Positions 26,221 through 56,921 of a stretch of 56,921 nucleotides of DNA are shown here, piece by piece (position 1 is the stretch's first letter; the number at the start of each line of letters is the position of its first letter). The stretch is taken from NCBI GenBank assembly GCA_032718475.1, contig JAUCBJ010005690.1, forward strand, positions 1-56,921. The letters run 5' to 3'. This DNA is from Nemertoderma westbladi (lineage: Eukaryota; Animalia; Xenacoelomorpha). Both the position numbers and the translations under genes were made by a program. Below the pieces are notes generated by a model. It ran no database searches. It saw only the letters and a program-made list of their open reading frames with translations, and was not told the origin of the DNA.

Positions 26221-27180
26221 TTATTTATTATTACAAAAAGCTTTAATTTTCTCTGTAATAGAATATATAGCAGTTGTAACGGGAGTTTCATGGTTTCCAG
26301 AGTTACTATCGAACAAATTACTACCAAAGTCGCTGGCCTCCCCCAACCGGGGATCCAAAGGCACCGAGCCGAGAAACGGAACACCCATGGACTCGCACAT
26401 TCCAACAGCGCCCCCCGTAGTCCCCGCGAACACCTCACTAACACCCCGACAGTTCGGGCACACGAACTCCGTCATGTTCTCAACCACTCCGATGATAGGC
26501 AAACCAACTCGTCGACAGAAAGTAACTTCCTTTCGAACATCGAGTAGCGAAACCTCCTGCGGAGTTGTAACGATGACAACGCCGTCGCAGCCCACAGCTC
26601 CGAGGTACTGAACGATGGACAGGTGTTCGTCGCTAGTCCCTGGAGGAGTGTCTACTAGCATGTAGTCTATCTCGCCCCAATCAACATCGCGAAGGAACTG
26701 TTTAATCATCCCGTTCTTACGAGGGCCGCGAAAGATTATGGCGTCGTCTTCCGCTGGGAGGAGAAATGAGATAGACATTGTGTTTAACTTGTCGTCTACG
26801 TAGACTGGGGACCAACCGGAGCCGCTCTGGTGGACAGTCTCGCCCTGCACGCCCAGGATCCGTGGCATAGAGGGACCGCAGATGTCTGTGTCTACCACCG
26901 ACACCTGAGAATCCGACCGACAGAGGGCGTACGCGAGGTTAGCGGTCAGCGTGGACTTACCCACACCGCCTTTACCGCTGAGGATTACGATTTTGTGGGC
27001 GACGCCGCACAATCGGGATCGAATCGTCTCGATGTCCGGGTCCGGGCCCGTTTTTGCGGCGCCGCTCGCGCATATTTTTTGGTTGGGGCAGCCGCTACAC
27101 GGGGTGGCTTTACCAGCGGTGTCGCTAGCGGTTCCCGGACAGTGGGCCGGTGCGTCAGCAGGAACATCTACAACCTCCAT
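26221..27180 (-). CDS. NUBP1: Cytosolic Fe-S cluster assembly factor NUBP1/Nbp35 (Mrp/NBP35 P-loop NTPase), single exon
   Basis: N-terminal CX13CX2CX5C motif (HCPG...[11 protein letters not shown]), deviant Walker [40 protein letters not shown]. Likely ATG at 27180 (MEVVDVP); alternative in-frame ATG at 27207. Confidence 0.96.
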
Positions 27181-29163
27181 ACTGGTATCGGTACGGCGGT
27201 ACACCATACAACGAGGTGGAAAACTCAAACACTGCAACACACTGTCTGATTGTCACTGTGCGCAAATTGCCAATTGGCTTATTGGGATGTCGTTTCAGCC
27301 TTCTCATTGGCAGATAGCGATAGGGTTCATGTTAAATTATTGATCATTATTGAAAAATTAGTGCCTAGACAGCTAGAAGTTAAAATTTTACTGTAAACTG
27401 TGTTCCTAAATGAGTTTATTGTTTGGGTTTGAAAAGCCTACCGTTATAACCTGCTACTTTCCTTTAAAAGGTACCTTAAATGGTGAATACCTGAATACAG
27501 GAATATCGAAATTAAATATTCGTGAAATTAAGTTAATATGATAAAATAGGCTGAATGTGAAACGACACCCCACTTCTGCACTTATTGGTAATATGGGCAC
27601 TGTGCACTGACAACAAACTTGATTTAATTAGTAAGGCATCAAATCAAGAGCTGAAGAGACAGTCAGAAATACAGCCAGAAAGTAGCACAGTAGGTACCGT
27701 ACGGTAGCTGTTTAGGTAGGGAATTTATATTGTCACTAACTCAAGTCATAACATAACAGATAACACTACACATTAATTAAACATTTTTTTTTTACTTAAC
27801 ACAAAAAAATTATACTTATGAAAAAATTACGATAAAATGAATCCATGCACTGTATATTATTATTATATTTAGTATTCGATAATTGTATTGTAATAGACGA
27901 AAGTTTATTGCGGAATAAAAATGAAGTAGTTATTTTGGTCCTTTACTTTAATAATAATTTGAAAACATTTCACCTAAAACTGAATGAATGAATGACTCTA
28001 TATTGTATACTGTAAACTCCAACTTTTTATACAGTATCTATATCTCACTCATGCTAGCTAGCTATCTCATTTTACATTATATTGTATTATAGGGTATCGT
28101 AAAATATTTACGGTTTATTTGCTGATATATTATCTCGACAGACAGTGCGGTATGTACAAAGCATATACTGTTCTGTAGCTGATAGACCACACTATCTGCG
28201 CCGACCACCTGCGGCGAATACCACCACAGTATGTCAATATGAAGGATTTGATATAAAATTTTAAGTTTGTTTTTTTATATTTTTTTTTATTTATTTTACA
28301 GTTGTATAGACCTTGTTTTTTCTTTCTTCATTCGTTAGTAATTTCAATTAAGTCTTAGAGTGTCTGTGGATGGAGATGCCTTAATGGATCTCACCGATAA
28401 GAATGTGAAACTGTTGTTAACAGTGGACAGGATTTTTAGGAATTAAATTACGTATTACATAAAAAAAATTGTAATATCCTTTATTACACCATAAGGATGT
28501 AATATCAGGATTGCTCAGAAATTCGCGGGAAATAAAGCAGTTTTATTCCATGTTATAAATAAGATGCGGTTTGGTGCGGATTGACAACGGAGCGGATTTA
28601 TAAACGGGTCATCCAATATGAGAAAGAATAGATAGGAAATTTAACTATAGAAATAACAGAATGATAACACCACCGTAAAACTAGAATAAATTAAGTTAAC
28701 CAATAATTTTGCATCAATTTTGCATGTTGCTACGAAACTGTTAGTTACTCATTCACTAACCAATGATAGACCTTCCAGTATACGATTTTATAATGATTGC
28801 CTTATTTTTAACAGGGATTTTACCCAGTTTCCCATCATGATACCTACGAAATTAAATAGAAATTACATACTATATCATATAAAATATAATGCAAAGTGAA
28901 ATATAAAATTTCCAAGGAAAGAAACTGAATTTAAAGTGTTACTTGGTTGCCAGGTATTTCAATATTATTGTTTACCTCACTGTCATAGTGACCCAGTGGT
29001 ATTTCCCTCTACAATATATCTTCATGACACTATGAGCTTTATATTTCCAACCATTTTACTAATAATTTATTCGCGCAAGTTGAATAAAATAATTAAATAA
29101 TTTAACTGACTATTATTATATTGTAGTAGTTGTTTCAACGAGTAAGTTAAGTAATAAAACAAT

Positions 29164-29538
29164 ATGTTAAACCATTCGATATTTGTCTCTGTCGTCATAG
29201 TTGGGGCTACGGCGGTTTTAAATGAAATTATATCGCAAACTACAATCCCTTGCGTGTTTGGTGGGGATATTGGGGACACGGTGTGTCGGTTAGCAGATAC
29301 CGGGTTCAGCACCGGCGAAACTAAGTGTTGCAGTGATGGATTCTGTTGCAACGTCGTGCAAAACTTCGTAGAAGACTATGTCTCTGTTTTTCCCATGGAA
29401 GCTATTATCGGTATTTGTGCCGGTGGATTTGTTCTCATCGTGGTTCTTTGTATCTGCCTTTGTTGTTGTTGCTGTGGTAAAAAGGAGACGACTGAAGTCC
29501 ATCATCATCATCCTATGACTGTTGCCATGGGCCCATGA
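29164..29538 (+). CDS. Shisa-like/WBP1-VOPP1-type single-pass membrane protein (six-cysteine ectodomain), 124 aa
   Basis: ATG start, hydrophobic signal-peptide-like N-terminus, C..C..CC..CC ectodomain, TM helix (AIIGICAGGFVLIVVLCICL), juxtamembrane CCCCC, short tail with HHHH. Confidence 0.75.
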   Translation: MLNHSIFVSVVIVGATAVLNEIISQTTIPCVFGGDIGDTVCRLADTGFSTGETKCCSDGFCCNVVQNFVEDYVSVFPMEAIIGICAGGFVLIVVLCICLCCCCCGKKETTEVHHHHPMTVAMGP

Positions 29539-31696: not shown

Positions 31697-32050
31697 GTAT
31701 CAATCCCTAATACCAAAAGCTAGCGAGAAATTAACAACAACACCAACACCAACAACAACGGAGTGAATACTAGAGGTCTCGCGGAAATAAAAAGCACATG
31801 ACCATGAATGCCAAGTTCGTCATTTTCGTCATTCAGTCACAAGTAATTGATTTTATGCTTAATTCACGGGGAGACAAATCAACAAGCTCTTCAAAAACTA
31901 AGGACGGAGTTAGTAACAACTATTTGATAAAAGAAAAGTTAGAAACATATTTTAATTTGACAGTTTTATTGGAATTAGTGAATTTTATTTGAGAGGGTGG
32001 GATATAGGTTTCCCTTGGACACTGGGATTATAAAAAGTCATAAGTGGCTA

Positions 32051-34842
32051 GTAGATTGGTAGCAGGTTCTTCTGTGGAGGTGGATTGGTAGCAGGCGGGT
32101 CTGTGGTTGGTTGATTGGTAACATGAAGGTTCTTCTATGGAGGGGAGGTGGATTGGTAGCAGGCGGGTCTGTGGTTGGTTGATTGGTAGTAGGTTCTTCG
32201 TTGGCTGGTGGATTGGTAGCAGGTTCTTCTGTGGAGGTAGATTTGTAGCAGGCGGGTCTGTGGTTGGTTGATTGGTTGCAGGTTCTTCTATGGATGTGGA
32301 TTGGTAGCAGGCGGGTCTGTGGTTGATTGATTGGTAGCAGGTAGGTTCTTCTATGGAGGTGGATAGGTAGCAGGCGGGTCTGTGACTGGTTGATTGGTAG
32401 GTGGTAGCAGGTTCTTCTATGGATGTGGATTGGTAGCAGGAGGGTCTGTGGTTGGTTGATTGGTAGCAGGTTCTTTTGTGGCTGGTGGATTGGTAGTAGG
32501 TTCTTCTGTGGAGGTGGATTGGTAGTAGGCGGGTCTGTGGCTCGTAGATTGGTAGTAGGTTCTTCGTTGGCTGGTGGATTGGTAGCAGGTTCTTCTGTTG
32601 AGGTAGATTTGTAGCAGGCGGGTCTGTGGTTGGTTGATTGGTAGCAGGTTCTTCTATGGAGGGGAGGGGAGGTGGATTGGTAGCAGGCGGGTCTGCGGTT
32701 GGTTGATTGGTAGCAGGTTCTTCTGTGGAGGTGGATTGGTAGTAGGCGGGTCTGTGGCTGGTAGATTGGTAGTATAGGCGGGTCTGTGGCTGGTAGATTG
32801 GTAGTAGGCGGGTCTGTGGCTGGTAGATTGGTAGTAGGTTCTTCGTTGGCTGGTGGATTGGTAGCAGGTTCTTCTGTTGAGGTAGATTTGTAGCAGGCGG
32901 GTCTGTGGTTGGTTGATTGGTAGCAGGTTCTTCTATGGAGGGGAGGGGAGGTGGATTGGTAGCAGGCGGGTCTGCGGTTGGTTGATTGGTAGCAGGTTCT
33001 TCTGTGGAGGTGGATTGGTAGCAGGTTCTTCTGTGGAGTTGGAATGGTAGTAGGCGGGTCTGTGGCTGGTGGATTGGTAGCAGGTTCTTCTCTGGAGGTG
33101 GATTGGTAGCAGGCGGGTCTGCGGTTGGTTGATTGGTAGTAGGTTCTTCGTTGGCTGGTGGATTGGTAGCAGGTTATTCTGTGGAGGTGGATTGGTAGCA
33201 GGCGGGTCTGCTGTTGGTTGATTGGTAGTAGGTTCTTCGTTGGCTCGTTGATTGGTAGCAGGTTCTTGTGTGGAGGTGGATTGGTAGCAGGCGGGTCTGT
33301 GGTTGGTTGATTGGTAGCAGGTTCTTCGTCGGCTGGTGGATTGGTAACAGGTTCTTCTGTGGAGGTGGATTGGTAGCAGGCGAGTCTGCGGTTGGTTGAT
33401 TGGTAGTAGGTTCTTCGTTGGCTGGTGGATTGGTAGCAGGCGGGTCTGTGGTTGGTTGATTGGTAGTAGGTTCTTCGTTGGCTGGTGGATTGGTAGCAGG
33501 CGGGTCTGTGGTTGGTTGATTGGTAGCATGCAGGTTCTTCTATGGAGGTGCTACCAATCCACCAGCCAGTTCTTCGTTGGCTGGTGGATTGGTAACAGGT
33601 TCTTCTGTGGAGGTGGATTGGTAGCAGGCGGTGCTGCGGTTGGTTGATTGGTAGTAGGTTCTTCGTTGGCTGGTGGTTTGGTAGCAGGTTCTTCTATGGA
33701 GGTGGATTGGTAGCAGGCGGGTCTGTGGTTGGTTGATTGGTAGCAGGTTCTTGTGTGGAGGTGGATTGATAGCAGGCGGGTCTGTGGTTGGTTAATTGGT
33801 AGCAGGTTCTTCGTTGGCTGGTGGTTTGGTAGCAGGTTCTTCTATGGAGGTGGATTGGTAGCAGGCGGGTCTGTGGTTGGTTGATTGGTAGCAGGTTCTT
33901 GTGTGGAGGTGGATTGATAGCAGGCGGGTCTGTGGTTGGTTAATTGGTAGCAGGTTCTTCGTTGGCTGGTGGATTGGTAACAGGTTCTTCTGTGGAGGTG
34001 GATTGGTAGCAGGCGGGTCTGTGGCTGGTAGATTGGTTGCAGGTTCTTTTGTGGCTGGTGGATTGGTAGCAGGCGGGTCTGAGGTTTGTTGTTTGGTAGC
34101 TGGTTCTTCTATGGTGGTGGATTGGTAGCAGGCGGGTCTGAGGTTTGTTGTTTGGTAGCTGGTTCTTCTATGGTGGTGGATTGGTAACAGGCGGGTCTGT
34201 GGCTGGTAGATTGTTTGCAGGTTCTTCTGTGGCTGGTAGATTGGTTGCAGGTTCTTTTGTGGCTGGTGGATTGGTAGCAGGCGGATCTGTGGTTGGTTGA
34301 TTGGTAGTAGGTTCTTCGTTGGCTGATGGATTGGAAGCAGGTTCTACTGTGGGGGTAGATTTGTAGCAGGCGGGTCTGTGGTTGGTTGATTGGTAGCAGG
34401 TTCTTCTATGGAGGTGGATTGGTAGCAAGCGGGTCTGTGGTTGGTAGATTGGTTGCAGGTTCTTTTGTGGCTGGTGGATTGGTAGCAGGCGGGTCTGTGG
34501 TTGGTTGATTGGTAGTAGGTTCTTCGTTGGCTGATGGATTGGTAGTAGGTTCCTCTATGGAGGTGGATTGGTAGCAGGCGGGTCTGTGGTTGGTAGATTG
34601 GTTGCAGGTTCTTTTGTGGCTGGTGGATTGGTAGCAGGCGGGTCTGTGGCTGGTGGGTTGGTAGCAGGTTCTTCTATGGAGGTGGATTAGAGCAGGCGGG
34701 CTGTGGCTGGTAGATTGGTTGCGGGTTCTTTTGTGGCTGGTGGATTGGTCGCAGGCGGGTCTGTGGTTGGTTGATTGGTAGCAGGTTCTTCTATGGAGGG
34801 GAGGGGAGGTGGATTGGTAGCATGCTGGTCTGTGGTTGGTTT
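32051..34842. repeat. Complex 29-30-bp G/T-rich minisatellite (~2.8 kb) with alternating monomer types
   Basis: Monomers GATTGGTAGCAGGTTCTTCTGTGGAGGTG, GATTGGTAGCAGGCGGGTCTGTGGTTGGTT and GATTGGTAGTAGGTTCTTCGTTGGCTGGTG. Confidence 0.97.
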
Positions 34843-34930
34843 ATCCACAATCAAAACAGTGATACTTGATATATTTATGGGCGTAGTTGACATGGGCGTT
34901 TAGACTGCCCTGCTGTCTGAATTATTTGTT

Positions 34931-36157
34931 TCAATAACCGCACATATGTTTGATTAGTTTATGGATATAGTCGACATGTTTTTTTAGATCACTTTTGGTA
35001 CCAAATGATTTTCCACAATCAAAACAGCTGTACTTGATATCTTTATGGGCGTAGTTGACATGGGCGTTTAGACTGCCCTGCTGTCTGAATTCTTTGTTAC
35101 AATAACCGCACTTATGTTTGATTAGTTTATGGATAGAGTCGACATGTTTTTTTAGATCACTTTTGGTACCAAATGATTTTCCACAATCAAAACAGCTGTA
35201 CTTGATATCTTTATGTGTGTAGTTGACATGGGCGTTTAGACTGCCTTGCCGGCTGAATTCTTTGTTACAATAACCGCACTTATGTTTGATATCTTTATGG
35301 GCGCAGTTGACATGGGCGTTTAGATGGTCTTGCCGGCTAAATTCTTTGTTACAATAACCGCACTTATGTTTAATTAGTTTATGGATAGAGTCGACATGTA
35401 TCTTTAGATGGCCTCGCTGGCTGAATTCTTTGTTACAATAAACGCACTTATGTTTTATTAGTTTATGGATAGAGTCGACATGTTTCTTTACATAACTCTT
35501 CGTTGTAAACAGTTTCTCACAATAATCGCATTTATACTTATTCTTGACGTCTTTATGAAAGGATTCTATATGTCTCTCTAAATTTTCTCTGCCATTAAAT
35601 AATTCATTGCAATGCGAACAGCAACTGGTAGGCCTATCTGGAGAAAATTGGAACTCCCCAACAGCTTTACTAGAACTACAGGGATCTGTTGTTGCAAAAC
35701 CGATTGCCGGTTTAGTAGAGCTGCAAAGATCAACGTTGTCACGAGAGGTACAGGTACCAGCAGTATTACATTGTTTTCGAACAGTTCGAGTTTCGGCAAA
35801 TGGATCAATAACTATACAACCTTCAGATTTTACACTAATAAATTGCAGCCCACAAGCTGAATGTTGAATATGAATATTTGCATCTTCAGTTTCAATAGGC
35901 CTACCATACGAACATTCTGGGCTGTCATTTTCCTGTTTTTCGACAACAAAATAATCTCCAGAAATATCTTCGTCATCTTGTACAGGGACATCATCTACTC
36001 CACCAAACAAATTGTTATGATTTTCGATAGATGATCCGTAAACGCAGTTCTCCTGTTTAACTTCAACAGGATTGGGGGCACAGTCTGGTGGTTCTTTCTT
36101 TATAATTATCCCGGCACTGGAGGATTTTTTCTTCAAAACATTAATTTGTTGATTCAT
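34931..36157 (-). CDS. C2H2 zinc-finger protein, 8 intact CX2C...HX4H fingers (29-aa/87-bp period), C-terminally truncated
   Basis: Repeated KCGYCNKEF....L..HV...H units; acidic N-terminus with IKKEP/VKQE motifs. First ATG at 36157 (36163 is TTG). The stop replaces the second Cys of finger 9. Confidence 0.9.
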   Translation of the reverse strand: MNQQINVLKKKSSSAGIIIKKEPPDCAPNPVEVKQENCVYGSSIENHNNLFGGVDDVPVQDDEDISGDYFVVEKQENDSPECSYGRPIETEDANIHIQHSACGLQFISVKSEGCIVIDPFAETRTVRKQCNTAGTCTSRDNVDLCSSTKPAIGFATTDPCSSSKAVGEFQFSPDRPTSCCSHCNELFNGRENLERHIESFHKDVKNKYKCDYCEKLFTTKSYVKKHVDSIHKLIKHKCVYCNKEFSQRGHLKIHVDSIHKLIKHKCGYCNKEFSRQDHLNAHVNCAHKDIKHKCGYCNKEFSRQGSLNAHVNYTHKDIKYSCFDCGKSFGTKSDLKKHVDSIHKLIKHKCGYCNKEFRQQGSLNAHVNYAHKDIKYSCFDCGKSFGTKSDLKKHVDYIHKLIKHMCGY

Positions 36158-36165
36158 TATCAAAT

Positions 36166-36225
36166 CTTAATACCGGTAATTATATAGGCCTATCAATAAT
36201 TATAATTATACAGGTGATTACTTAC
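36166..36225 (-). other. Putative 60-bp 5'UTR intron of the zinc-finger gene
   Basis: Minus strand G|GTAAGT ... AT-rich ... TTAAG|ATTTGATAATG, ending 8 nt before the ATG. Inferred from splice consensus only. Confidence 0.4.
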
Positions 36226-46494: not shown

Positions 46495-49400
46495 CTAAGG
46501 TGCCCCTTCTAATAGGCAGCACTTTCCTACAGCCCTCCTGTAGGTCTTCCTGTCCTTTGCTCCTATCTTGCCTCCTATTCTCACTTCCACCGACCGGACT
46601 CTTCCGTCCTCGTCGGGGTAAGTATCTACCACTCCCGCTAGCCTCCACTGGTTATTTATAATTGTGTCGTCAGTAACGATTACCAAGTCACTTTTCTTCA
46701 GCTCCCTAGTGGTGTTTCTCCACTTACTCCTCCTGTGTAATGTGGGAAGATATTCCTCTACCCATCTCCTCCAATACTTGACGCTTATTGCCTTGGCGAC
46801 TTTCCAACTTTGGCGGGAATGTATGTCGTCTGGGTCTACGCCCCGCATGTCGATGGTCGCCGGCCTCTCCATCAGAAAGTGTCCCGGTGTTAGCACGTCC
46901 AGTGATTCTGGGTCGTCATTCTCCGGATATAGCGGTCTGCTATTAATGATTCCCTCGCACTTGGCAAGCACCGTTCTTAGTATGTCCTCTGTGACCATGT
47001 GGGTGTTCATCAACTTCGTCATTAAACGCTTAGAACTTCCCACAAGTCTCTCTACACATCCTAAGGTATGTGGTGTGTACGGTGTCCTCCTTTCCCACTT
47101 CACTTGCCATCTCCTCATAGCCACCCTGACATCTTCTCCCTCCAGGATGTTGAAGGCCTTGGCCAACTCGTTCTCTGCTCCAACGAAGTTGGTCCCGTTA
47201 TCTGAATAAATCACCGCGATTGTTCCCCCTTTGCGGTCTCTAAATCTCTCTAAGGCATTAATAAATGCCGATGCCGTAGCGTCCTGCGCGAGTTCTATTC
47301 CTACCGCCCTCGTATTGTTGCATACGAAGATAATGCCGTGGCGTTTCTCCGTGTGTCGCATCACCTTAATCTTAATCGGCCCGAACATGTCTATGCCGCA
47401 GTGTGTGAATGGCGGGTCGTGTTGTCTCACTATGTTGGCCGGTAATGGCGCCATCTCCTGTATGGCCCTCTCCTTTCTCACCCTTCGGCAGGTCTGGCAC
47501 TGCCCCACTACCGCCTTCACCTTCTTCCTAAGTTGCGTGATCCAGAATGTTCTTCTTATCTCTGTGAGGGTCTGATTCGTGCCTCCATGTAGTATCAACT
47601 TATGCGAGTCCCAAATGATTTGGTGGACTATCGGTGATTTGTTAGGAATGATTATGGGTTTCGGTGGGATAACTAGGCTGTTGTTGTTCACCACTCTGGA
47701 ATTCATCACCAGAATCCCATCATCATTCAACTGTGGGGACAGCATGTTGAGCTCGCTGTCTCGACGAAGGTGTTGTTGCTTGCTAACTCTATCCACTTCG
47801 TCGGCGTAGTTCTTTCTCTGCTCGTACCGTATTACGGCTTTAGCCACTCCTTCCAGATCGATGTTTGGTTTCCTTTTGGCATCCTTGCCAACTCCCCTAA
47901 GGAAATCCCCGTAGACCTTCCAATACACTACCAACTTCTTGGTCTTATACCAGCTGGAGCTGTAACTGAGCAACCTATCTGTCGGGTTGTCGCATGGTTC
48001 TTCTAATTTCGGTGGCACCTCCTTGATCTCCCTCACTATCTGGCTGTATATCTCTTCCCCTTCTGAATCTTCCCCCTCTTCTTCTGGTACTACTTCCTCT
48101 GAGCCCTGGTCCACCTTCCTCATTGGTGGCCAGGCTGATCTATCGCTCAGGAAGTGTGGCCCGTGCTGCCACAACACTTCCTTCTTCGAGAAAGTGTGGC
48201 ATGCCACGCCCCTCGATAACAAATCTGCTGGGTTGTCGTCGGTAGGGCAGTAATGCCACCTATCTAGGTCGGTCATCGCCCTTATCTCGTCTACCCTATT
48301 CGCGACGAATATAGGGTATCTCGTCTTCTCATTATGCAGCCACCCTAGCACTACCATGGAGTCCGTCCAGTAGTGTGTCTCCACTATGTTGGGTATAGTG
48401 TCCATCAAGTAGGCTGTGGCCCTTACTCCTAACCTCGCAGCTGTCAACTCGAGTTTCGGGACTGACCCTGATTCTGGTGGCATCGACTTCGCTTTACTAA
48501 ATGCAAGTCTGGGCTTATGAACCCCCTTTCGCTGTACCAGATAAAGTGCCGCTCCATACGCTTCTAAAGATGCATCAGAAAACATATGTAGATCCAGGTC
48601 CGTCATGTCCCCGTCCGGGAAATACACGCGTGGCATGCTGTACATCCCCATCTGTTCTAGACTTCCCGTCCACTTACTCCACTGTTTGCTTATTTCTTCC
48701 GGGACCTCCGTATCCCACTCGTCCTTCAACTTGTATACTTTCTTTAGTATCTGCTTCCCTGTGACTAACAATGGGGATGCTAGGCCTAAGGGATCGTATA
48801 TCCTTGCTATGTACAATACATAGCCTCGCTTTGTGTGGATCTCTGCGCCCTCCTGGCTTAGTTGATACTCCAACTCATCCGTCTCCCGGTTCCACACAAT
48901 CCCCAGCGCCTTCTGCTGAGACTCCACTCTCTTGTTCGCCATGTCCTGTCCCTTCGCTGTTGTGGGGTTGCCCATGGTCGACTCTGGCCGCCTGTCTTCT
49001 ATGGCTTTCATGAACTTCTCTGAGCTGGACTGGAACTTAGTCAGGTTGAATCCGGATCCCTTTACGATATCGCGAACCTCGCACCCTATATCCAGTATTT
49101 CTTCAACCGTGTTTCCAGATCCCATCCCATCGTCTATCTAGAAACCGCATCGAATCATGTCGATCGACTTGGCACTATACTCTCCCTCTTTCCCCTCTAC
49201 CGTATCTCTCACAGCCAGAGTCGTCATAAATGAGGATGACTTGGCCCCCATGTTTTGCACCACCATCTTGTACATCGGTATCGCAGACGGTTCCTCGTCA
49301 CCGTTATACCACAGGAAGCGCTGGCTGTCACTGTCCTCTTCCGTCACACAGACTTGGTTGAACATGCCTTCGATGTCGCACGTGAAGGTGTGCCTCCCAT

Positions 49401-50540
49401 TCCTAAATCTCAACAAGACCTCTATCCCCAAGTTGTAGATGTTGGGGCCCTCCAGCAGATAGTCGTTAATAGGCTCTTGCCATTCGTTTTGGCCGATGCA
49501 TCAACCACCATCCGCAGTTTACCCTTCTTTGGGTCTAAAGCCACATGAAGTGGCAGGTAGTAGGTCCAGTCCGTGTTCGGTTCGTCGACCGGTAACTCCA
49601 CGGCCCATCCCTTTTCCATGTATTTCTTTATTGTCTTATGGATCTACTCATCCTACTCGGGGCTCTGTCTGAGTGTTTGCTTCAGTTTGCAAAGCCTCTT
49701 GAGTACCATCCCTTTATTGTCAGGCAACGGTAGTTTTGGTTGGTTGTTTCCACACCATGCCTATGGTGTACCATCCCTCGTCGCACTTCATCGACTCCTT
49801 CATGCTTTCTATTGCTTGTTTATCCTCTACCGAGGTTCCGACCCCGGCCTCCTTTAATCCTTCGAAGTCCTCTCTTAACAGCCTCTTAAGCTGCTCTTTT
49901 GATCCTTCATCCTCCATCTCCCTCATGGTCCCCGCGAACATGCACCCCGATGTCTCCGACACCCTGAATGGAATCTTGGTTTTGATTGGGCCGCTAAGTG
50001 TTCATCCGAACGGTGTGAGAACTGCCATTGGATCACGCTGCCTGTCCTCTCCGAAGATTGTTCGTACTCTCTCGTGGGCCATCGGACAGTCCATCCCCAC
50101 TATGATGGATACCTTCCGGACGTCCACTTCCGGTATCGAGAAATCGATTTCATCCAGGAATCTGTATTACTCGACCTCGTTGTTAGTTGGTCGCCTGGCA
50201 TTTATGTTGATCGATTCTATTACCTGAATGGGGTCGATGGTCGCCCCATAGTCACATCCCAGTGCTATTGCTGATATCTCGCACCTTCCCGTCCTCATCT
50301 CCAGGACCTCATCCAGGATCTCCAGTTACTGCCATCCTGCTCGGCCTCGTCTGTAACTTTATCTCCTCGGCCACCCAATTCTGCACCAATGTGAAGGCTG
50401 CTCCATGGTCGACCAGCATCAACGTGGTAATTGATCGACCGCTTTCTCCCATTACCCTCACCGGTACCGCCCCGAGTAGTACCATTCCCCTTCTCTTCGC
50501 ACCTACGGTGCTTGTCGCCATCGTTTTGCCTTTGCCTTGA
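46495..50540 (-). pseudogene. BEL/Pao pol (protease, RT, RNase H, integrase); 46495-49125 is still open (876 aa)
   Basis: PR LVDHGAAFT; RT YLPLH, KLRMVVDAS, CDIEGMFNQV, F*IDD (TAG at 49138-49140 replaces the Y of YxDD); RH LHMFSDASLEAYGA, PKLEL, WTDSMVVL; IN H..H..CQTC, GIDMFGP, SDNGTNFVGA, ERLVG. Confidence 0.95.
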
Positions 50541-53500
50541 CCGAATATAATTGGTGTCTCTTTACATTGCTCAGCCTTGTGTCTGCCTGCCACACATCGA
50601 TGACAGATTCCACTTTCGTTCGCGTATTCTAGCTGATCTTGTTTGGGTAATGCTTGCCAGTACCTGCAGTTCATGGTCTGATGATTGATGAAGTGCGTTC
50701 GAAAGTAATTGGCATTTGTTTCTCGGATTATAGCCTCCCCTATATAGCACGCTCCGTATCGCACGTACATTCATACTTAGCTCTCTACTGTTCTTATTAT
50801 TTGGGTTTGGCCTACTGGGCGTGTTGGGGCTGTATTTATTTGTGTTATTATTTTGTCCCTGTCCATGCCATGGTATGGCCCTACCCCCGGCTATCTCTGA
50901 ACTAGCAGTCCTCTGCGTCGTCGCGTATGGTAGCGATTGTCTGAGCTTTGGTAATGCATTTGCCGCATTATGTTCTGGTTTCAGCCTGCTATATTCGGTC
51001 TTCCGGATCTAATCCCGTTGTTCGCGCTACCCAATCGCCTACACTATCTCTTCCAGCATGGCCTATAGTATGTGCAGTAAGGCCTACAGTATGTCCTGCA
51101 GTCTGCCTATGTCCCTCCAGACCGAAGTGTAATCTTCTCGAATATTCCAAGAAGTCCTCCCCGCGACCACCGTACTCTCGATCGGCAACTATATCCCGTC
51201 GGGAAGTTTCTCTGCAATCCCCTCTTCTGTCCTCGTCCTCGTACCGGTACATCCTGTACCCTTCTCCCGGCGTATGGTATATCTTGCCAGGCTGCATCTC
51301 TCCGGGGCGACGGCAATCTCCCGGAGTTCGACCCCACTGACTCTCTAACTCCATCTCTGCCACCGACGGTTCGCTGTCCAACCTCGCTCTCCGGTTGCTC
51401 GTAGCAACGCTTCTTCTATTCTCTTCACTTCTTCTCTCCTCAGTGTAGCACTCCCGCTAATAAGATCTCTCTTCGACCTCCCGTTTAAACTCTACTGTTC
51501 TTCTTCCATCTTCCGACTGGGCTCAACGTCACATCGCTCGCCCGCTCACAGCACCAACCTCTCTCTCTCTCTAGCCGGTTGGACGCTCCTGGGGATACTC
51601 GCAATCCCCCTACTATTCTCCGTCGTCGGGTGCCGCGGTTAACCTAACTCTCCCCGCGCATTATCCGCCGATGCTTGTGGGGCATTCTCTGCCGCCCCCC
51701 CCCCCCCCTCTCACCACTAATCTCCCGTGGTGGGGCACCCGTAGCCCCCCCCCCCCCATTCACCACCTCTTACTTCGCTACCTCCTACTTCGCTTCTACG
51801 CCCCTCTCTAGTCGATGCATTATCTCTACTGTGGCTGGGTCTACTCACCCCCGCCTCTCCCTGTGCGACTGTGTGGCCTTGCAGGCTCCCATCGGGTTGA
51901 CTCACCCCCGCTACTCCCTGCCTAACTACATGGCCTTGCAGGCTCCCATTGGGGCGACTCACCGCCGCTACTCCCTGCATAACTACATGGCCTTGCAGGC
52001 TTCCGTCGGGTTCACTCACCCCGCTACTCCCTGCACAACTATGTGGCCTTGCAGGCTCTCGCTGTCCGGACTACCTGTGTCCCCTACATTCGTTTTAATA
52101 GCACCGTTATCAATAATATTGTTATCTAAATTATTTAAATTATTTAAATTATTTTGTTCGGATTTGTGGTTATTATTTGGATTACTTTGTACATTTAAAT
52201 TAGAATTATTATTTGGATTATTTTGTGTGTCTAAATTAGTGTTATTATTTGGATTACCGGTATTTTATGCGTTTAAATTAATATTATTTGGATTATTTTG
52301 TATGTTTAAATTAGTATTATTATTATTTTGCACATTTGAATCAAAATAACTATTACTGGGTAAAACATTATTTCCTGCAATAAAGGTTTGATTAGGGTTG
52401 TCTACTACAGTACTATTAATATTAATTCTTTCTAACGTATTATTATTACCCCCCCCCCCCCCTCCCCCCCCCGTCCATACGGTTACAACAGTCCTGGGTC
52501 TGTCGTCCAGTACCTGTAAGTAGGGTATTAACAAATGTTTCCATTACTTCGGGCTCCCCATAAATACTACCCGAACCGGCCTCACTCTCAGATAATCCCA
52601 ACTGCGCCAGTTCTAATCGGCGCTTTTGCTTTGTCTGGTATTGCATAAGCCCGCTTAACCGGGTATGCATATCATCCCGCATACGCTTTCCCGTTCTCTC
52701 TCTCTCTCTGTCCTCTCGCAAACTTTGGTCGGCCAACTCTGCCTCTCTCGCAATCCTCTCAAGCCTCCTCGCCTCATGCTCCTTGCGCTCGCTCGCCTCT
52801 CTCGCCTCTCGCTCTTTACATTCCCTTAATTCCCTCTCCTCACCCTCTCTAAAGTTCCTCGCGACCCTCTCAGCCATCTCTTTACTCTCTCTCACTAACT
52901 CTCTCTCTTTCTCTAATAATGCGGTTCCCTCATCCAATTGCCTCTCCAACTCTTTCTGGTCCAACGCCATCATATCTAGTTGACACGCCAGATCTATCTC
53001 TAACACCCTAACACCTAACACCTCTAACACCAGGATGTAGCGGACTTTTCACTCACAACGGACTCCCGTCGCCTCTCCGTCCTACTAACTTTCCCCCGCT
53101 TTCTGGGGTTCTCGCTAACCGACGACACCGAATCCTCGGGGTTAATCTCGGGTTCGCCGTCGTGCGGGTCCGCCCAACCCACTAGCTTAATTCCCCTAGC
53201 ATCCACTAAGTAAGGCTACACTACATCTGGATCACCACAATTCAAACAGTTCCGTGGCGACCCCCCTCGCTCTCTCACCTGCCAGTTCTCCCTGTCCAAA
53301 TGGACTAAATAGTGGAACTGTTTATTCGACTCACCTAGCCTCTGATATAGTTTAGGCTGGTCTACCTTTCTCCCTTCTTTGGCCTCCTTAAGTAACTTCT
53401 TGGTGACGTTGTAGGCCCGTCGTAGCCGATCACTCGTCCCGACGTCCTCTTCGCCAACTCCTCCTCCTCTCCTTGTCCGGCATCGTACCAGCGGCCCCAC

Positions 53501-54845: not shown

Positions 54846-54915
54846 AAAATGTTATAGTACATTATGATAATGCTCTCCATAGCGAAAAATATCAACCGCC
54901 CCTATTGGGGCTCGA

Positions 54916-54959
54916 ACCCGGTACCTAGGTTTCAAACTTCCGGTTATCATCAGCTGAGT
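54916..54959 (-). ncRNA. Type I hammerhead ribozyme, copy 1 (weakened stem I)
   Basis: ACTCAG CTGATGA TAACCGGAAGTTT GAA ACCTAGGT A CCGGGT; stem I has an A-C mismatch and a U-G pair. Confidence 0.7.
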
Positions 54960-55262
54960 GTGTGTCCTAAGACCACTGAGCTACCAGGGCGGTAGAAGAT
55001 TTATTCGCTATGGAGTGGGGTATCATTTTTAGGCCTTTTTACGTCACTCATAGTAAAGTACAACGTTATTCCCGAGCTCTGCCAGAAATGGCAACCATGC
55101 CTCAAAGAATAACTATTATACAGTGTTGTAGAAACCACTGTAACCCCGTATGCCGGCCATGCGTGTTAATTAATTATAAATGAATTGTTGTGGGGAGGGT
55201 GACGGCGAATTAAATAAATGTTATAGTACATTATGATAATGCTCTCCATAGTGAAAAATATC

Positions 55263-55362
55263 AACCGCCCCTATTGGGGCTCGAACTCGGTACCTAGGTT
55301 TCAAACTTCCGGTTATCATCAGCCGAGTGTGTGTCCTAAGACCACTGAGCTACCAGGGCGGT
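55263..55362 (-). promoter_or_regulatory. Pol III type-2 internal promoter cassette in each 369-bp unit (copy 2 shown)
   Basis: A box TAGCTCAGTGG (55352-55342), B box GTTCGAGCC (55286-55278), closing stem ACCGCCCT/GGGGCGGT, T5 run a few nt downstream. Confidence 0.7.
55285..55328 (-). ncRNA. Type I hammerhead ribozyme, copy 2
   Basis: ACTCGG-CTGATGA-T AAC CGGAA GTT T-GAA-ACCTAGGT-A^CCGAGT: perfect 6-bp stem I, intact core, palindromic stem III, GUA cleavage site between 55291 and 55290. Confidence 0.85.
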
Positions 55363-55653
55363 AGAAGATTTATTCACTTTGGAGTGGGCTATCATATATA
55401 GGCCTTTTACAGTCACTCATAGGAAAGTACAACGTTATTCCCGTGCTCTGCCAGAAATGGCAACCATGCCTCAAAGAATAACTATTATACAGTGTTGTAG
55501 AAACCACTGTAACCCCGTATGCCGGCCATGCGTGTTAATTAATTATAAATGAATTGTTGTGGGGAGGGTGACGGCGAATTAAATAAATGTTATAGTACAT
55601 TATGATAATGCTCTCCATAGTGAAAAATATCAACCGCCCCTATTGGGGCTCGA

Positions 55654-55697
55654 ACTCGGTACCTAGGTTTCAAACTTCCGGTTATCATCAGCCGAGT
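55654..55697 (-). ncRNA. Type I hammerhead ribozyme, copy 3
   Basis: Identical to copy 2. Confidence 0.85.
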
Positions 55698-56022
55698 GTG
55701 TGTCCTAAGACCACTGAGCTACCAGGGCGGTAGAAGATTTATTCACTTTGGAGTGGGCTATCATATATAGGCCTTTTACAGTCACTCATAGGAAAGTACA
55801 ACGTTATTCCCGTGCTCTGCCAGAAATGGCAACCATGCCTCAAAGAATAACTATTATACAGTGTTGTAGAAACCACTGCAACCCCGTATGCCGGCCATGC
55901 GTGTTAATTAATTATAAATGAATTGTTGTGGGGAGGGTGACGGCGAATTAAATAAATGTTATAGTACATTATGATAATGCTCTCCATAGTGAAAAATATC
56001 AACCGCCCCTATTGGGGCTCGA

Positions 56023-56066
56023 ACTCGGTACCTAGGTTTCAAACTTCCGGTTATCATCAGCCGAGT
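56023..56066 (-). ncRNA. Type I hammerhead ribozyme, copy 4
   Basis: Identical to copy 2. Confidence 0.85.
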
Positions 56067-56391
56067 GTGTGTCCTAAGACCACTGAGCTACCAGGGCGGT
56101 AGAAGATTTATTCACTTTGGAGTGGGCTATCATATATAGGCCTTTTACAGTCACTCATAGGAAAGTACAACGTTATTCCCGTGCTCTGCCAGAAATGGCA
56201 ACCATGCCTCAAAGAATAACTATTATACAGTGTTGTAGAAACCACTGTAACCCCGTATGCCGGCCATGCGTGTTAATTAATTATAAATGAATTGTTGTGG
56301 GGAGGGTGACGGCGAATTAAATAAATGTTATAGTACATTATGATAATGCTCTCCATAGTGAAAAATATCAACCGCCCCTATTGGGGCTCGA

Positions 56392-56435
56392 ACTCGGTAC
56401 CTAGGTTTCAAACTTCCGGTTATCATCAGCCGAGT
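56392..56435 (-). ncRNA. Type I hammerhead ribozyme, copy 5
   Basis: Identical to copy 2. Confidence 0.85.
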
Positions 56436-56760
56436 GTGTGTCCTAAGACCACTGAGCTACCAGGGCGGTAGAAGATTTATTCACTTTGGAGTGGGCTATC
56501 ATATATAGGCCTTTTACAGTCACTCATAGGAAAGTACAACGTTATTCCCGTGCTCTGCCAGAAATGGCAACCATGCCTCAAAGAATAACTATTATACAGT
56601 GTTGTAGAAACCACTGTAACCCCGTATGCCGGCCATGCGTGTTAAATAATTATAAATGAATTGTTGTGGGGAGGGTGACGGCGAATTAAATAAATGTTAT
56701 AGTACATTATGATAATGCTCTCCATAGTGAAAAATATCAACCGCCCCTATTGGGGCTCGA

Positions 56761-56804
56761 ACTCGGTACCTAGGTTTCAAACTTCCGGTTATCATCAGCC
56801 GAGT
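56761..56804 (-). ncRNA. Type I hammerhead ribozyme, copy 6
   Basis: Identical to copy 2. Confidence 0.85.
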
Positions 56805-56921
56805 GTGTGTCCTAAGACCACTGAGCTACCAGGGCGGTAGAAGATTTATTCACTTTGGAGTGGGCTATCATATATAGGCCTTTTACAGTCACTCATAGGA
56901 AAGTACAACGTTATTCCCGTG

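Follow-up and report, generated by a model that had tools for sequence, protein, structure and literature searches.

How animal retrozymes are transcribed, and which enzyme mobilizes them, are open questions, and both are raised by a tandem array at one end of a contig from the xenacoelomorph Nemertoderma westbladi (GenBank assembly GCA_032718475.1, contig JAUCBJ010005690.1, positions 1 to 56,921; this whole 56,921-nucleotide stretch is the window below). Metazoan retrozymes that lack long terminal repeats (non-LTR retrozymes) are described in Cervera and de la Pena 2020 (PMC7229834) and in Li, Clavereau and Pollet 2026 (bioRxiv 10.64898/2026.07.22.740005), the latter arguing for Penelope-like elements as their mobilizers from distribution and phylogeny; here and throughout, published systems are characterized from passages of the papers cited. 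We report that each 369-bp unit of the N. westbladi array carries a type I hammerhead ribozyme motif nested between the A and B boxes of a candidate RNA polymerase III (Pol III) promoter, and that related copies elsewhere in the genome bear insertion scars of the Penelope type. We consider it probable that the array is a non-LTR retrozyme with an internal Pol III promoter that is split by self-cleavage, and that it spreads through a Penelope-type reverse transcriptase. A single unit thus offers a built-in candidate promoter together with Penelope-type scars, and makes both questions testable.

A hammerhead motif in every unit of a 369-bp array

Tandem Repeats Finder, run on the window, returned a period of 369 bp, 5.6 head-to-tail copies and 99% matches at 54847-56921, and the array, read here on the minus strand, continues past the window end at 56921. 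Compared with unit 3, units 2-6 differ at 0-2 bases and unit 1 at 14. The array has a GC content of 42.5% and no frame of at least 120 amino acids; no further copy of the unit was detected in the rest of the window (best E=0.2).

The hammerhead core is present on the minus strand in six of six units and absent from the plus strand. In unit 3 (motif at 55654-55697), the C3-A9 core segment lies at 55691-55685 and GAAA at 55671-55668, followed by a GUA cleavage triplet; C3-A9, G12-A15.1 and an NUH triplet, here GUA, recur in all six units. Stem I is formed by 55697-55692 and 55659-55654 (6 bp), and the three helices with an open helix I define a type I hammerhead with a predicted cut at 55660/55659. 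Stem II has a U·U at its base, then 3 bp and a 5-nt loop. The eight bases of stem III plus its loop are palindromic; the favoured reading is a 2-bp stem closed by a palindromic tetraloop or, in a dimer, 8 bp. The other motifs lie at 54916-54959 (unit 1, predicted cut 54922/54921), 55285-55328 (unit 2, predicted cut 55291/55290), 56023-56066 (unit 4), 56392-56435 (unit 5) and 56761-56804 (unit 6, itself partial). A full descriptor comprising core, three stems and NUH triplet matched the unit once, in none of 20,000 dinucleotide shuffles and nowhere in the other 54.8 kb of the window.

Both the tandem array and its minus-strand motif, first proposed in a sequence-only reading of this DNA, are therefore real features of the locus. 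That reading had correctly placed the unit 2 cut at 55291/55290 (A17 is 55660 in unit 3, minus 369), and its statement that every unit encodes a hammerhead holds for the core. It does not extend to a perfect stem I, which is 6 bp in units 2-6 and weakened in unit 1 by one A·C mismatch and one U·G pair. Five consecutive perfect motifs in 369-bp units agree with the size and tandem arrangement of non-LTR retrozymes and, judged on DNA features, the array falls within the definition of that class.

The ribozyme motif occupies a tRNA-like frame

The hammerhead of unit 3 lies inside a minus-strand tRNA-like frame (55634-55729, recurring every 369 bp) that has acceptor-like ends, a D arm and a T arm, and in which the ribozyme takes the place of the anticodon arm and variable loop. 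An A-box match lies at 55721-55711 and a B-box match to the standard consensus at 55655-55647; such a pair arises in only 11 of 20,000 shuffles and is absent from the rest of the window. The two structures share bases: the 3' strand of stem I is the 5' strand of the T stem and overlaps the B box, and the predicted cut at 55660/55659 separates the A box upstream from the B box just downstream. A T5 run at 55623-55627, 20 nt after the B box, is the only run of four or more T residues per unit on the minus strand and a candidate Pol III terminator.

An imperfect inverted repeat, which belongs to neither strand in particular (55601-55765, arms at ~55601-55643 and ~55722-55765), closes the tRNA/hammerhead segment into a long hairpin (self-BLAST E=1e-8; z=-3.9 for a 186-nt fold). 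One pair of this outer hairpin is changed on both sides between units 1 and 3 with pairing kept.

ARAGORN at default settings found no tRNA in the whole window. A relaxed, intron-allowed drawing, weak when taken alone, sets acceptor-like ends, D arm and T arm around the ribozyme. With relaxed settings and the ribozyme core masked, a cloverleaf was called in unit 1; 3 of 1,000 shuffles also gave a call. Looser masked calls at -ps70 were dropped, as 27-44 of 1,000 shuffles were called too. A pattern made from the end letters of the element retrieved 34 viral loci, and of the 38 tRNA genes in these, 34 are tRNA-Lys; because the pattern was chosen with a Lys likeness already in mind, the tRNA-Lys resemblance is a lead, and the isotype is not established. 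Against 26 distinct viral tRNA genes from this set, the element matches from the 5' end through the A box and again from the T arm into the acceptor, and the cleavage triplet aligns with their variable loop. The family majority described below carries a more tRNA-like G before the B box.

A dispersed family with a fixed 3' end and inverted arms

Five runs were listed under one organism label, none of them recorded as RNA, and to describe the family we used contigs from the four that contain the unit (X1-X4), which come from three studies; run X5 (its kind guessed, another organism label, two contigs at depth 3-4) was not used as expression evidence. Relative to the flank, summed depth in X1 and X3 is ~14,000-23,000-fold over the 3' part of the unit, ~1,900-3,200-fold over the A-box part and ~80-170-fold at 55055-55069, figures that we read for order of magnitude and shape only, since summed contig depth is not copy number. 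The fall toward the 5' end is steady.

Many copies stop at 54848/9, 54854/5 or 54863, in AT-rich DNA, and this 3' end common to the dispersed copies (54848-54863, minus strand), with its several stop points, is the left edge of the array. A fixed 3' end with frequent 5' truncation is what Penelope-type mobilization leaves. Several solo copies with flanks on both sides run from ~54848 to 55015-55026; in those listed the cut site is intact and the ends lie 59-74 nt past the cut and up to ~37 nt past T5. The 5' ends of the copies listed vary, many lying upstream of 54990, to 55069 and beyond, and a few at 54997-54999, so that copies do not characteristically begin at the tRNA-like 5' end as in a tRNA-derived short interspersed nuclear element (SINE) started by Pol III. 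Copies 10-15% diverged span the spacer to 55844, and the spacer to at least that point belongs to the family.

Of the 15 joints listed among 25, scored at the level of contigs, eight join opposite strands, with an inverted truncated copy next to the 5' end. Penelope-like insertions are described as having this arrangement, in which truncation at the 5' end goes with an inverted copy beside it (PMC8557442). In three of the eight listed the arm length maps exactly onto 54854 or 54863, and in one onto 54868 (taking the short side as the arm); in seven of the eight the joint does not fall on the axis of the hairpin within the unit. Some inverted-arm copies extend 70-80 nt upstream of the tRNA start. 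Five of the eight arms listed end at or just short of the cut (54912-54922) and may be a DNA footprint of cleavage in vivo.

Variation in the motif was also seen across the contigs. At one pair of stem I, units 2-6 have U-A, unit 1 has U·G, and the majority of the remaining contigs have C-G letters (in X1, 91% and 57% of the summed depth for the two positions, the two changes being unphased). Listed variants fall mostly at position 7 (at least 22 contigs in X1, against at least 3-6 at positions 3 and 6) and in loop II; for GAAA, stem III and the triplet the listing shows no variant. Position 7 is the free core position in the established hammerhead numbering. The concentration on loop II and position 7 is a hint of core constraint among the variants listed.

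Several further observations concern the family. Loose ends at 54965 (unit 1) and 55703 (unit 3), in 13-32 contigs per run, resemble the A-box region and suggest that in one subfamily the A box lies closer to the hammerhead. Within the spacer, summed depth peaks a second time at 55800-55860 (108,000 in X1, 49,000 in X4, ~300 in X2), and this part seems to be shared with another abundant repeat or with a subfamily that differs between samples. A smaller peak at 55539-55577, with loose ends at 55539/55540, seems to reflect some members with a longer 3' end, ~47 bases past the common one. Contigs of ~1.9 kb in X1, X2 and X4 carry part of the unit (55650-55804) at one end and are possibly a longer element. 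In X1, X3 and X4, left-flank contigs match the window up to 54845 and then continue for 257-287 other bases, which points to a possible version of the locus that lacks the array, the alternatives being an assembly join or the way the assembler treats repeats.

These data bear on two other accounts of the family. One holds that this is an ordinary non-LTR retrozyme or the pseudo-LTR (pLTR) of a Penelope-like element, its A and B boxes a relic or coincidence and its RNA produced by RNA polymerase II read-through. This is the strongest competitor, and we regard it as unlikely: it would account for templates that pass both the tRNA start and T5, the ~1.9-kb contigs could be longer elements of the kind it supposes, and Pol III goes unmentioned in the passages of PMC7229834 and of bioRxiv 10.64898/2026.07.22.740005, as do promoters and tRNA in those of the latter; but it has to set aside a box pair rare in shuffled sequence, a tRNA likeness that includes acceptor ends, D arm and T arm, and the G before the B box that makes the family majority more tRNA-like.

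The second account is a ~180-bp tRNA-derived SINE moved by an ordinary long interspersed nuclear element (LINE), in which the hammerhead only trims or destroys a short Pol III transcript and the array grew by DNA-level duplication with no circles. The A and B boxes, T5 and fixed AT-rich 3' end would all be expected of it, as would solo copies confined to 54848 to 55015-55026 with both flanks present, and the greater divergence of unit 1 is what satellite edge units often show. Inverted arms with varied 5' breakpoints up to 55069, diverged spacer-bearing copies elsewhere and an array edge that coincides with the family 3' end nevertheless make LINE-driven spread improbable.

A probable split promoter and the template for reinsertion

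The position of the cut has a direct consequence for a retrozyme with an internal promoter. Because the predicted cut falls between the boxes, a linear cut-to-cut monomer has them in the wrong order, B box first and A box last, and the promoter is therefore restored only in a circle or a tandem. The copies listed also constrain the template: they cross the cut site and pass T5, and some pass the tRNA start. The template was therefore an uncut multimer or a circle, longer than the Pol III transcript, and not a linear cut monomer.

We infer the following cycle. Pol III would start at the tRNA-like head, using the A and B boxes. A transcript terminated at T5 would be ~105 nt long and would cut itself into pieces of ~70 and ~35 nt. 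RNA reading through T5 into the tandem would self-cut, probably best as a two-ribozyme dimer, to yield 369-nt monomers, whose ends would pair and could be ligated into a circle, as other retrozymes are by RtcB (PMC7229834). A Penelope-type reverse transcriptase would then probably copy the uncut or circular RNA back into the genome.

A number of results weigh against this reading. On the ribozyme itself, the sequence-only reading had proposed a search with Rfam Hammerhead_1, which had no match in either a 196-nt or a 6.9-kb scan; nor did any other hammerhead family apart from Hammerhead_HH9, which scored 21.3 bits (E=0.0034) in the 196-nt scan against a gathering score of 52 and was the sole hammerhead match in the 6.9-kb scan at E=7.8. 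Matches to mir-3 and SNORA55 (E 0.74 and 0.21) were regarded as chance. In the HH9 alignment the typical tertiary bases of loop II and stem I are not evident and distal stem I fits the consensus poorly; in mussel retrozyme ribozymes most of these bases are absent and cleavage is retained. The highly conserved, though not universal, G10.1-C11.1 pair is replaced by U·U. The earlier reading had flagged this U·U, and we confirm it; its weight is lessened because the active axolotl ribozyme HHR_Amex2 likewise has U·U as the basal pair of stem II, together with a stem III of 2 bp and a tetraloop (PMC7229834).

Folding adds to the case against. The unconstrained fold lacks the hammerhead, and imposing the single form carries a penalty of 5 kcal/mol for unit 3 and ~12 kcal/mol for unit 1. 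For a two-motif transcript, the double hammerhead (-161.7 kcal/mol) is more stable than two single ones (-156.0) and ~5 kcal/mol above the unconstrained minimum (-166.5), so that in these models the active dimer fold is within reach and not the ground state. The HHR_Amex2 monomer cleaves 22% in 1 h and its dimer much better (PMC7229834). As a circle, the monomer is predicted to be hardly more stable than its shuffles (z=-1.15), though described retrozyme circles are called highly self-paired.

As for transcription and spread, T5 should stop many Pol III transcripts 20 nt past the B box, and an intron-allowed relaxed ARAGORN call (tRNA-Pro) was dropped, with 193 and 195 of 2,000 shuffles also called; the tRNA-Lys lead carries the bias of its pattern. 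Among ten open reading frames (ORFs) of the window that were scanned, the BEL/Pao, zinc-finger and NUBP1 frames among them, none encodes a Penelope-type reverse transcriptase. X2 gives much lower depth ratios than the other two runs, X1 and X3. Subfamily divergence may explain some of the 5' drop in depth, given that the loose ends at 54965 resemble the A-box region. The gap between summed depth and copy number, and the listing of 15 of the 25 joints, count on the same side.

The same weaknesses could be taken to mean that the array is an inactive satellite whose hammerhead is a non-cutting look-alike, a by-product of tRNA-derived sequence with a weak Rfam score, a U·U pair and a minimum-energy fold that is not the ribozyme, but this is very improbable, given that the full descriptor was matched by none of 56 loci (6 viral, 50 prokaryotic) chosen for core and B-box words and by none of 118 metagenome loci listed for a loose pattern, and that the listed variants spare GAAA, stem III and the triplet while falling mostly at position 7 and in loop II. 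None of those 118 metagenome loci had a BLAST hit either, and they are uninformative on relatives.

At the level of DNA, the retrozyme interpretation in the sequence-only reading fits: type I hammerheads stand in tandem, GC content is 42.5%, long ORFs are absent and copies occur throughout a family. Its expectation of 369-nt RNAs fits less well, in that T5 predicts a standard Pol III transcript of ~105 nt, and it left out the tRNA-like A/B-box frame, the T5 run and the mostly dispersed, Penelope-style family. Taken to its fullest form, the split-promoter retrozyme would be one built inside a tRNA gene, the hammerhead replacing the anticodon arm, the variable loop becoming the triplet and the T stem becoming stem I, with the promoter cut in two, the need for a circle or tandem selecting rolling-circle copying, and Penelope-type spread to the order of ten thousand copies. 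We put this forward tentatively, as possible rather than probable. If the ribozyme alone holds, the array adds a further family to the retrozymes; what sets it apart from a routine retrozyme-type array is the probable splitting of its promoter together with scars of the Penelope type.

Other features of the window

A 13-bp satellite occupies 1691-25284 (~1,813 copies, 87% matches) and is strongly A-rich on the plus strand. An uninterrupted minus-strand frame at 26221-27180 encodes the Fe-S assembly factor NUBP1/Nbp35, at most 66% identical to the 120 relatives listed from animals, fungi and a holozoan, a spread that indicates a eukaryotic and probably animal host. In a plus-strand frame of 126 amino acids (29158-29538), which matches nothing in Pfam, a run of Cys residues comes after a hydrophobic stretch. 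In the region 32028-36166, a minus-strand C2H2 zinc-finger frame (34931-36166) adjoins a block of 30-bp repeats, interrupted by frame breaks, that encodes units rich in Pro, Thr and Glu. What is left of a BEL/Pao-type LTR retrotransposon lies on the minus strand at 46495-50770, with Peptidase_A17, integrase and DUF5641 domains and a protease-like piece in a separate frame.

Comparison with known systems

Like metazoan non-LTR retrozymes, the array consists of non-coding tandem units (150-450 bp in the described families) with a GC content below 50% and one type I hammerhead each, occurs as monomers and multimers in one genome, and has a proposed mobilization of the Penelope type. The U·U at the base of helix II, the 2-bp helix III and the tetraloop recur in axolotl Rtz_353/HHR_Amex2. 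It differs in its tRNA-like internal promoter, which has no counterpart in the searched passages of PMC7229834 or the preprint, and in that only the tRNA/hammerhead half is predicted to be unusually self-paired, not the whole circle; the N. westbladi family is also known from DNA alone.

Penelope-like elements and their pLTR hammerheads share with it 5'-truncated copies, tandems, an inverted 5' copy and a palindromic helix III suited to dimer cleavage (PMC4209133, PMC8557442). Unlike them, the unit has no reverse transcriptase or GIY-YIG ORF, its stem I is of canonical size rather than that of a minimal hammerhead, and it has a tRNA-like frame. With tRNA-derived SINEs it has in common A and B boxes, a T run, high copy number and a fixed 3' end in AT-rich DNA; unlike SINEs, it has copies that reach upstream of the tRNA start, inverted arms and long tandem stretches, and a ribozyme lies within the tRNA part.

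A hammerhead between A and B boxes was described nowhere in the literature covered (titles and abstract openings, the primary Sm-alpha paper and most subscription journals lying outside that scope), nor in the passages of PMC4209133, PMC3088659, PMC5680766, PMC6155905 and PMC10886601, and the novelty of this ribozyme-in-promoter nesting is provisional. The nesting also ties SINEs and retrozymes to tRNAs, and points to a way in which pieces of a tRNA could be put together into a hammerhead.

Another close parallel is with Sm-alpha and Sj-alpha of Schistosoma, which combine tRNA-derived sequence, a Pol III promoter and a type I hammerhead in one repeat (PMC6765202, PMC2770079), as the A and B boxes and hammerhead of the N. 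westbladi unit do. Sm-alpha, too, needs tandems, since cleavage parts the promoter from the downstream copy, and it numbers tens of thousands of copies. As reviewed, its promoter precedes the hammerhead and the whole promoter sits at the 3' end of the cleaved unit, whereas in the N. westbladi unit the hammerhead has a box on either side, stands where the anticodon arm would be and has bases in common with the T stem, and the B box (55655-55647) is downstream of the predicted cut (55660/55659), which would split the promoter. Since in the review the promoter in its entirety comes ahead of the ribozyme, we do not assign the array to Sm-alpha and set it apart by description. By analogy, it likely works as Schistosoma Sm-alpha does, with the difference that here the cut would split the promoter itself.

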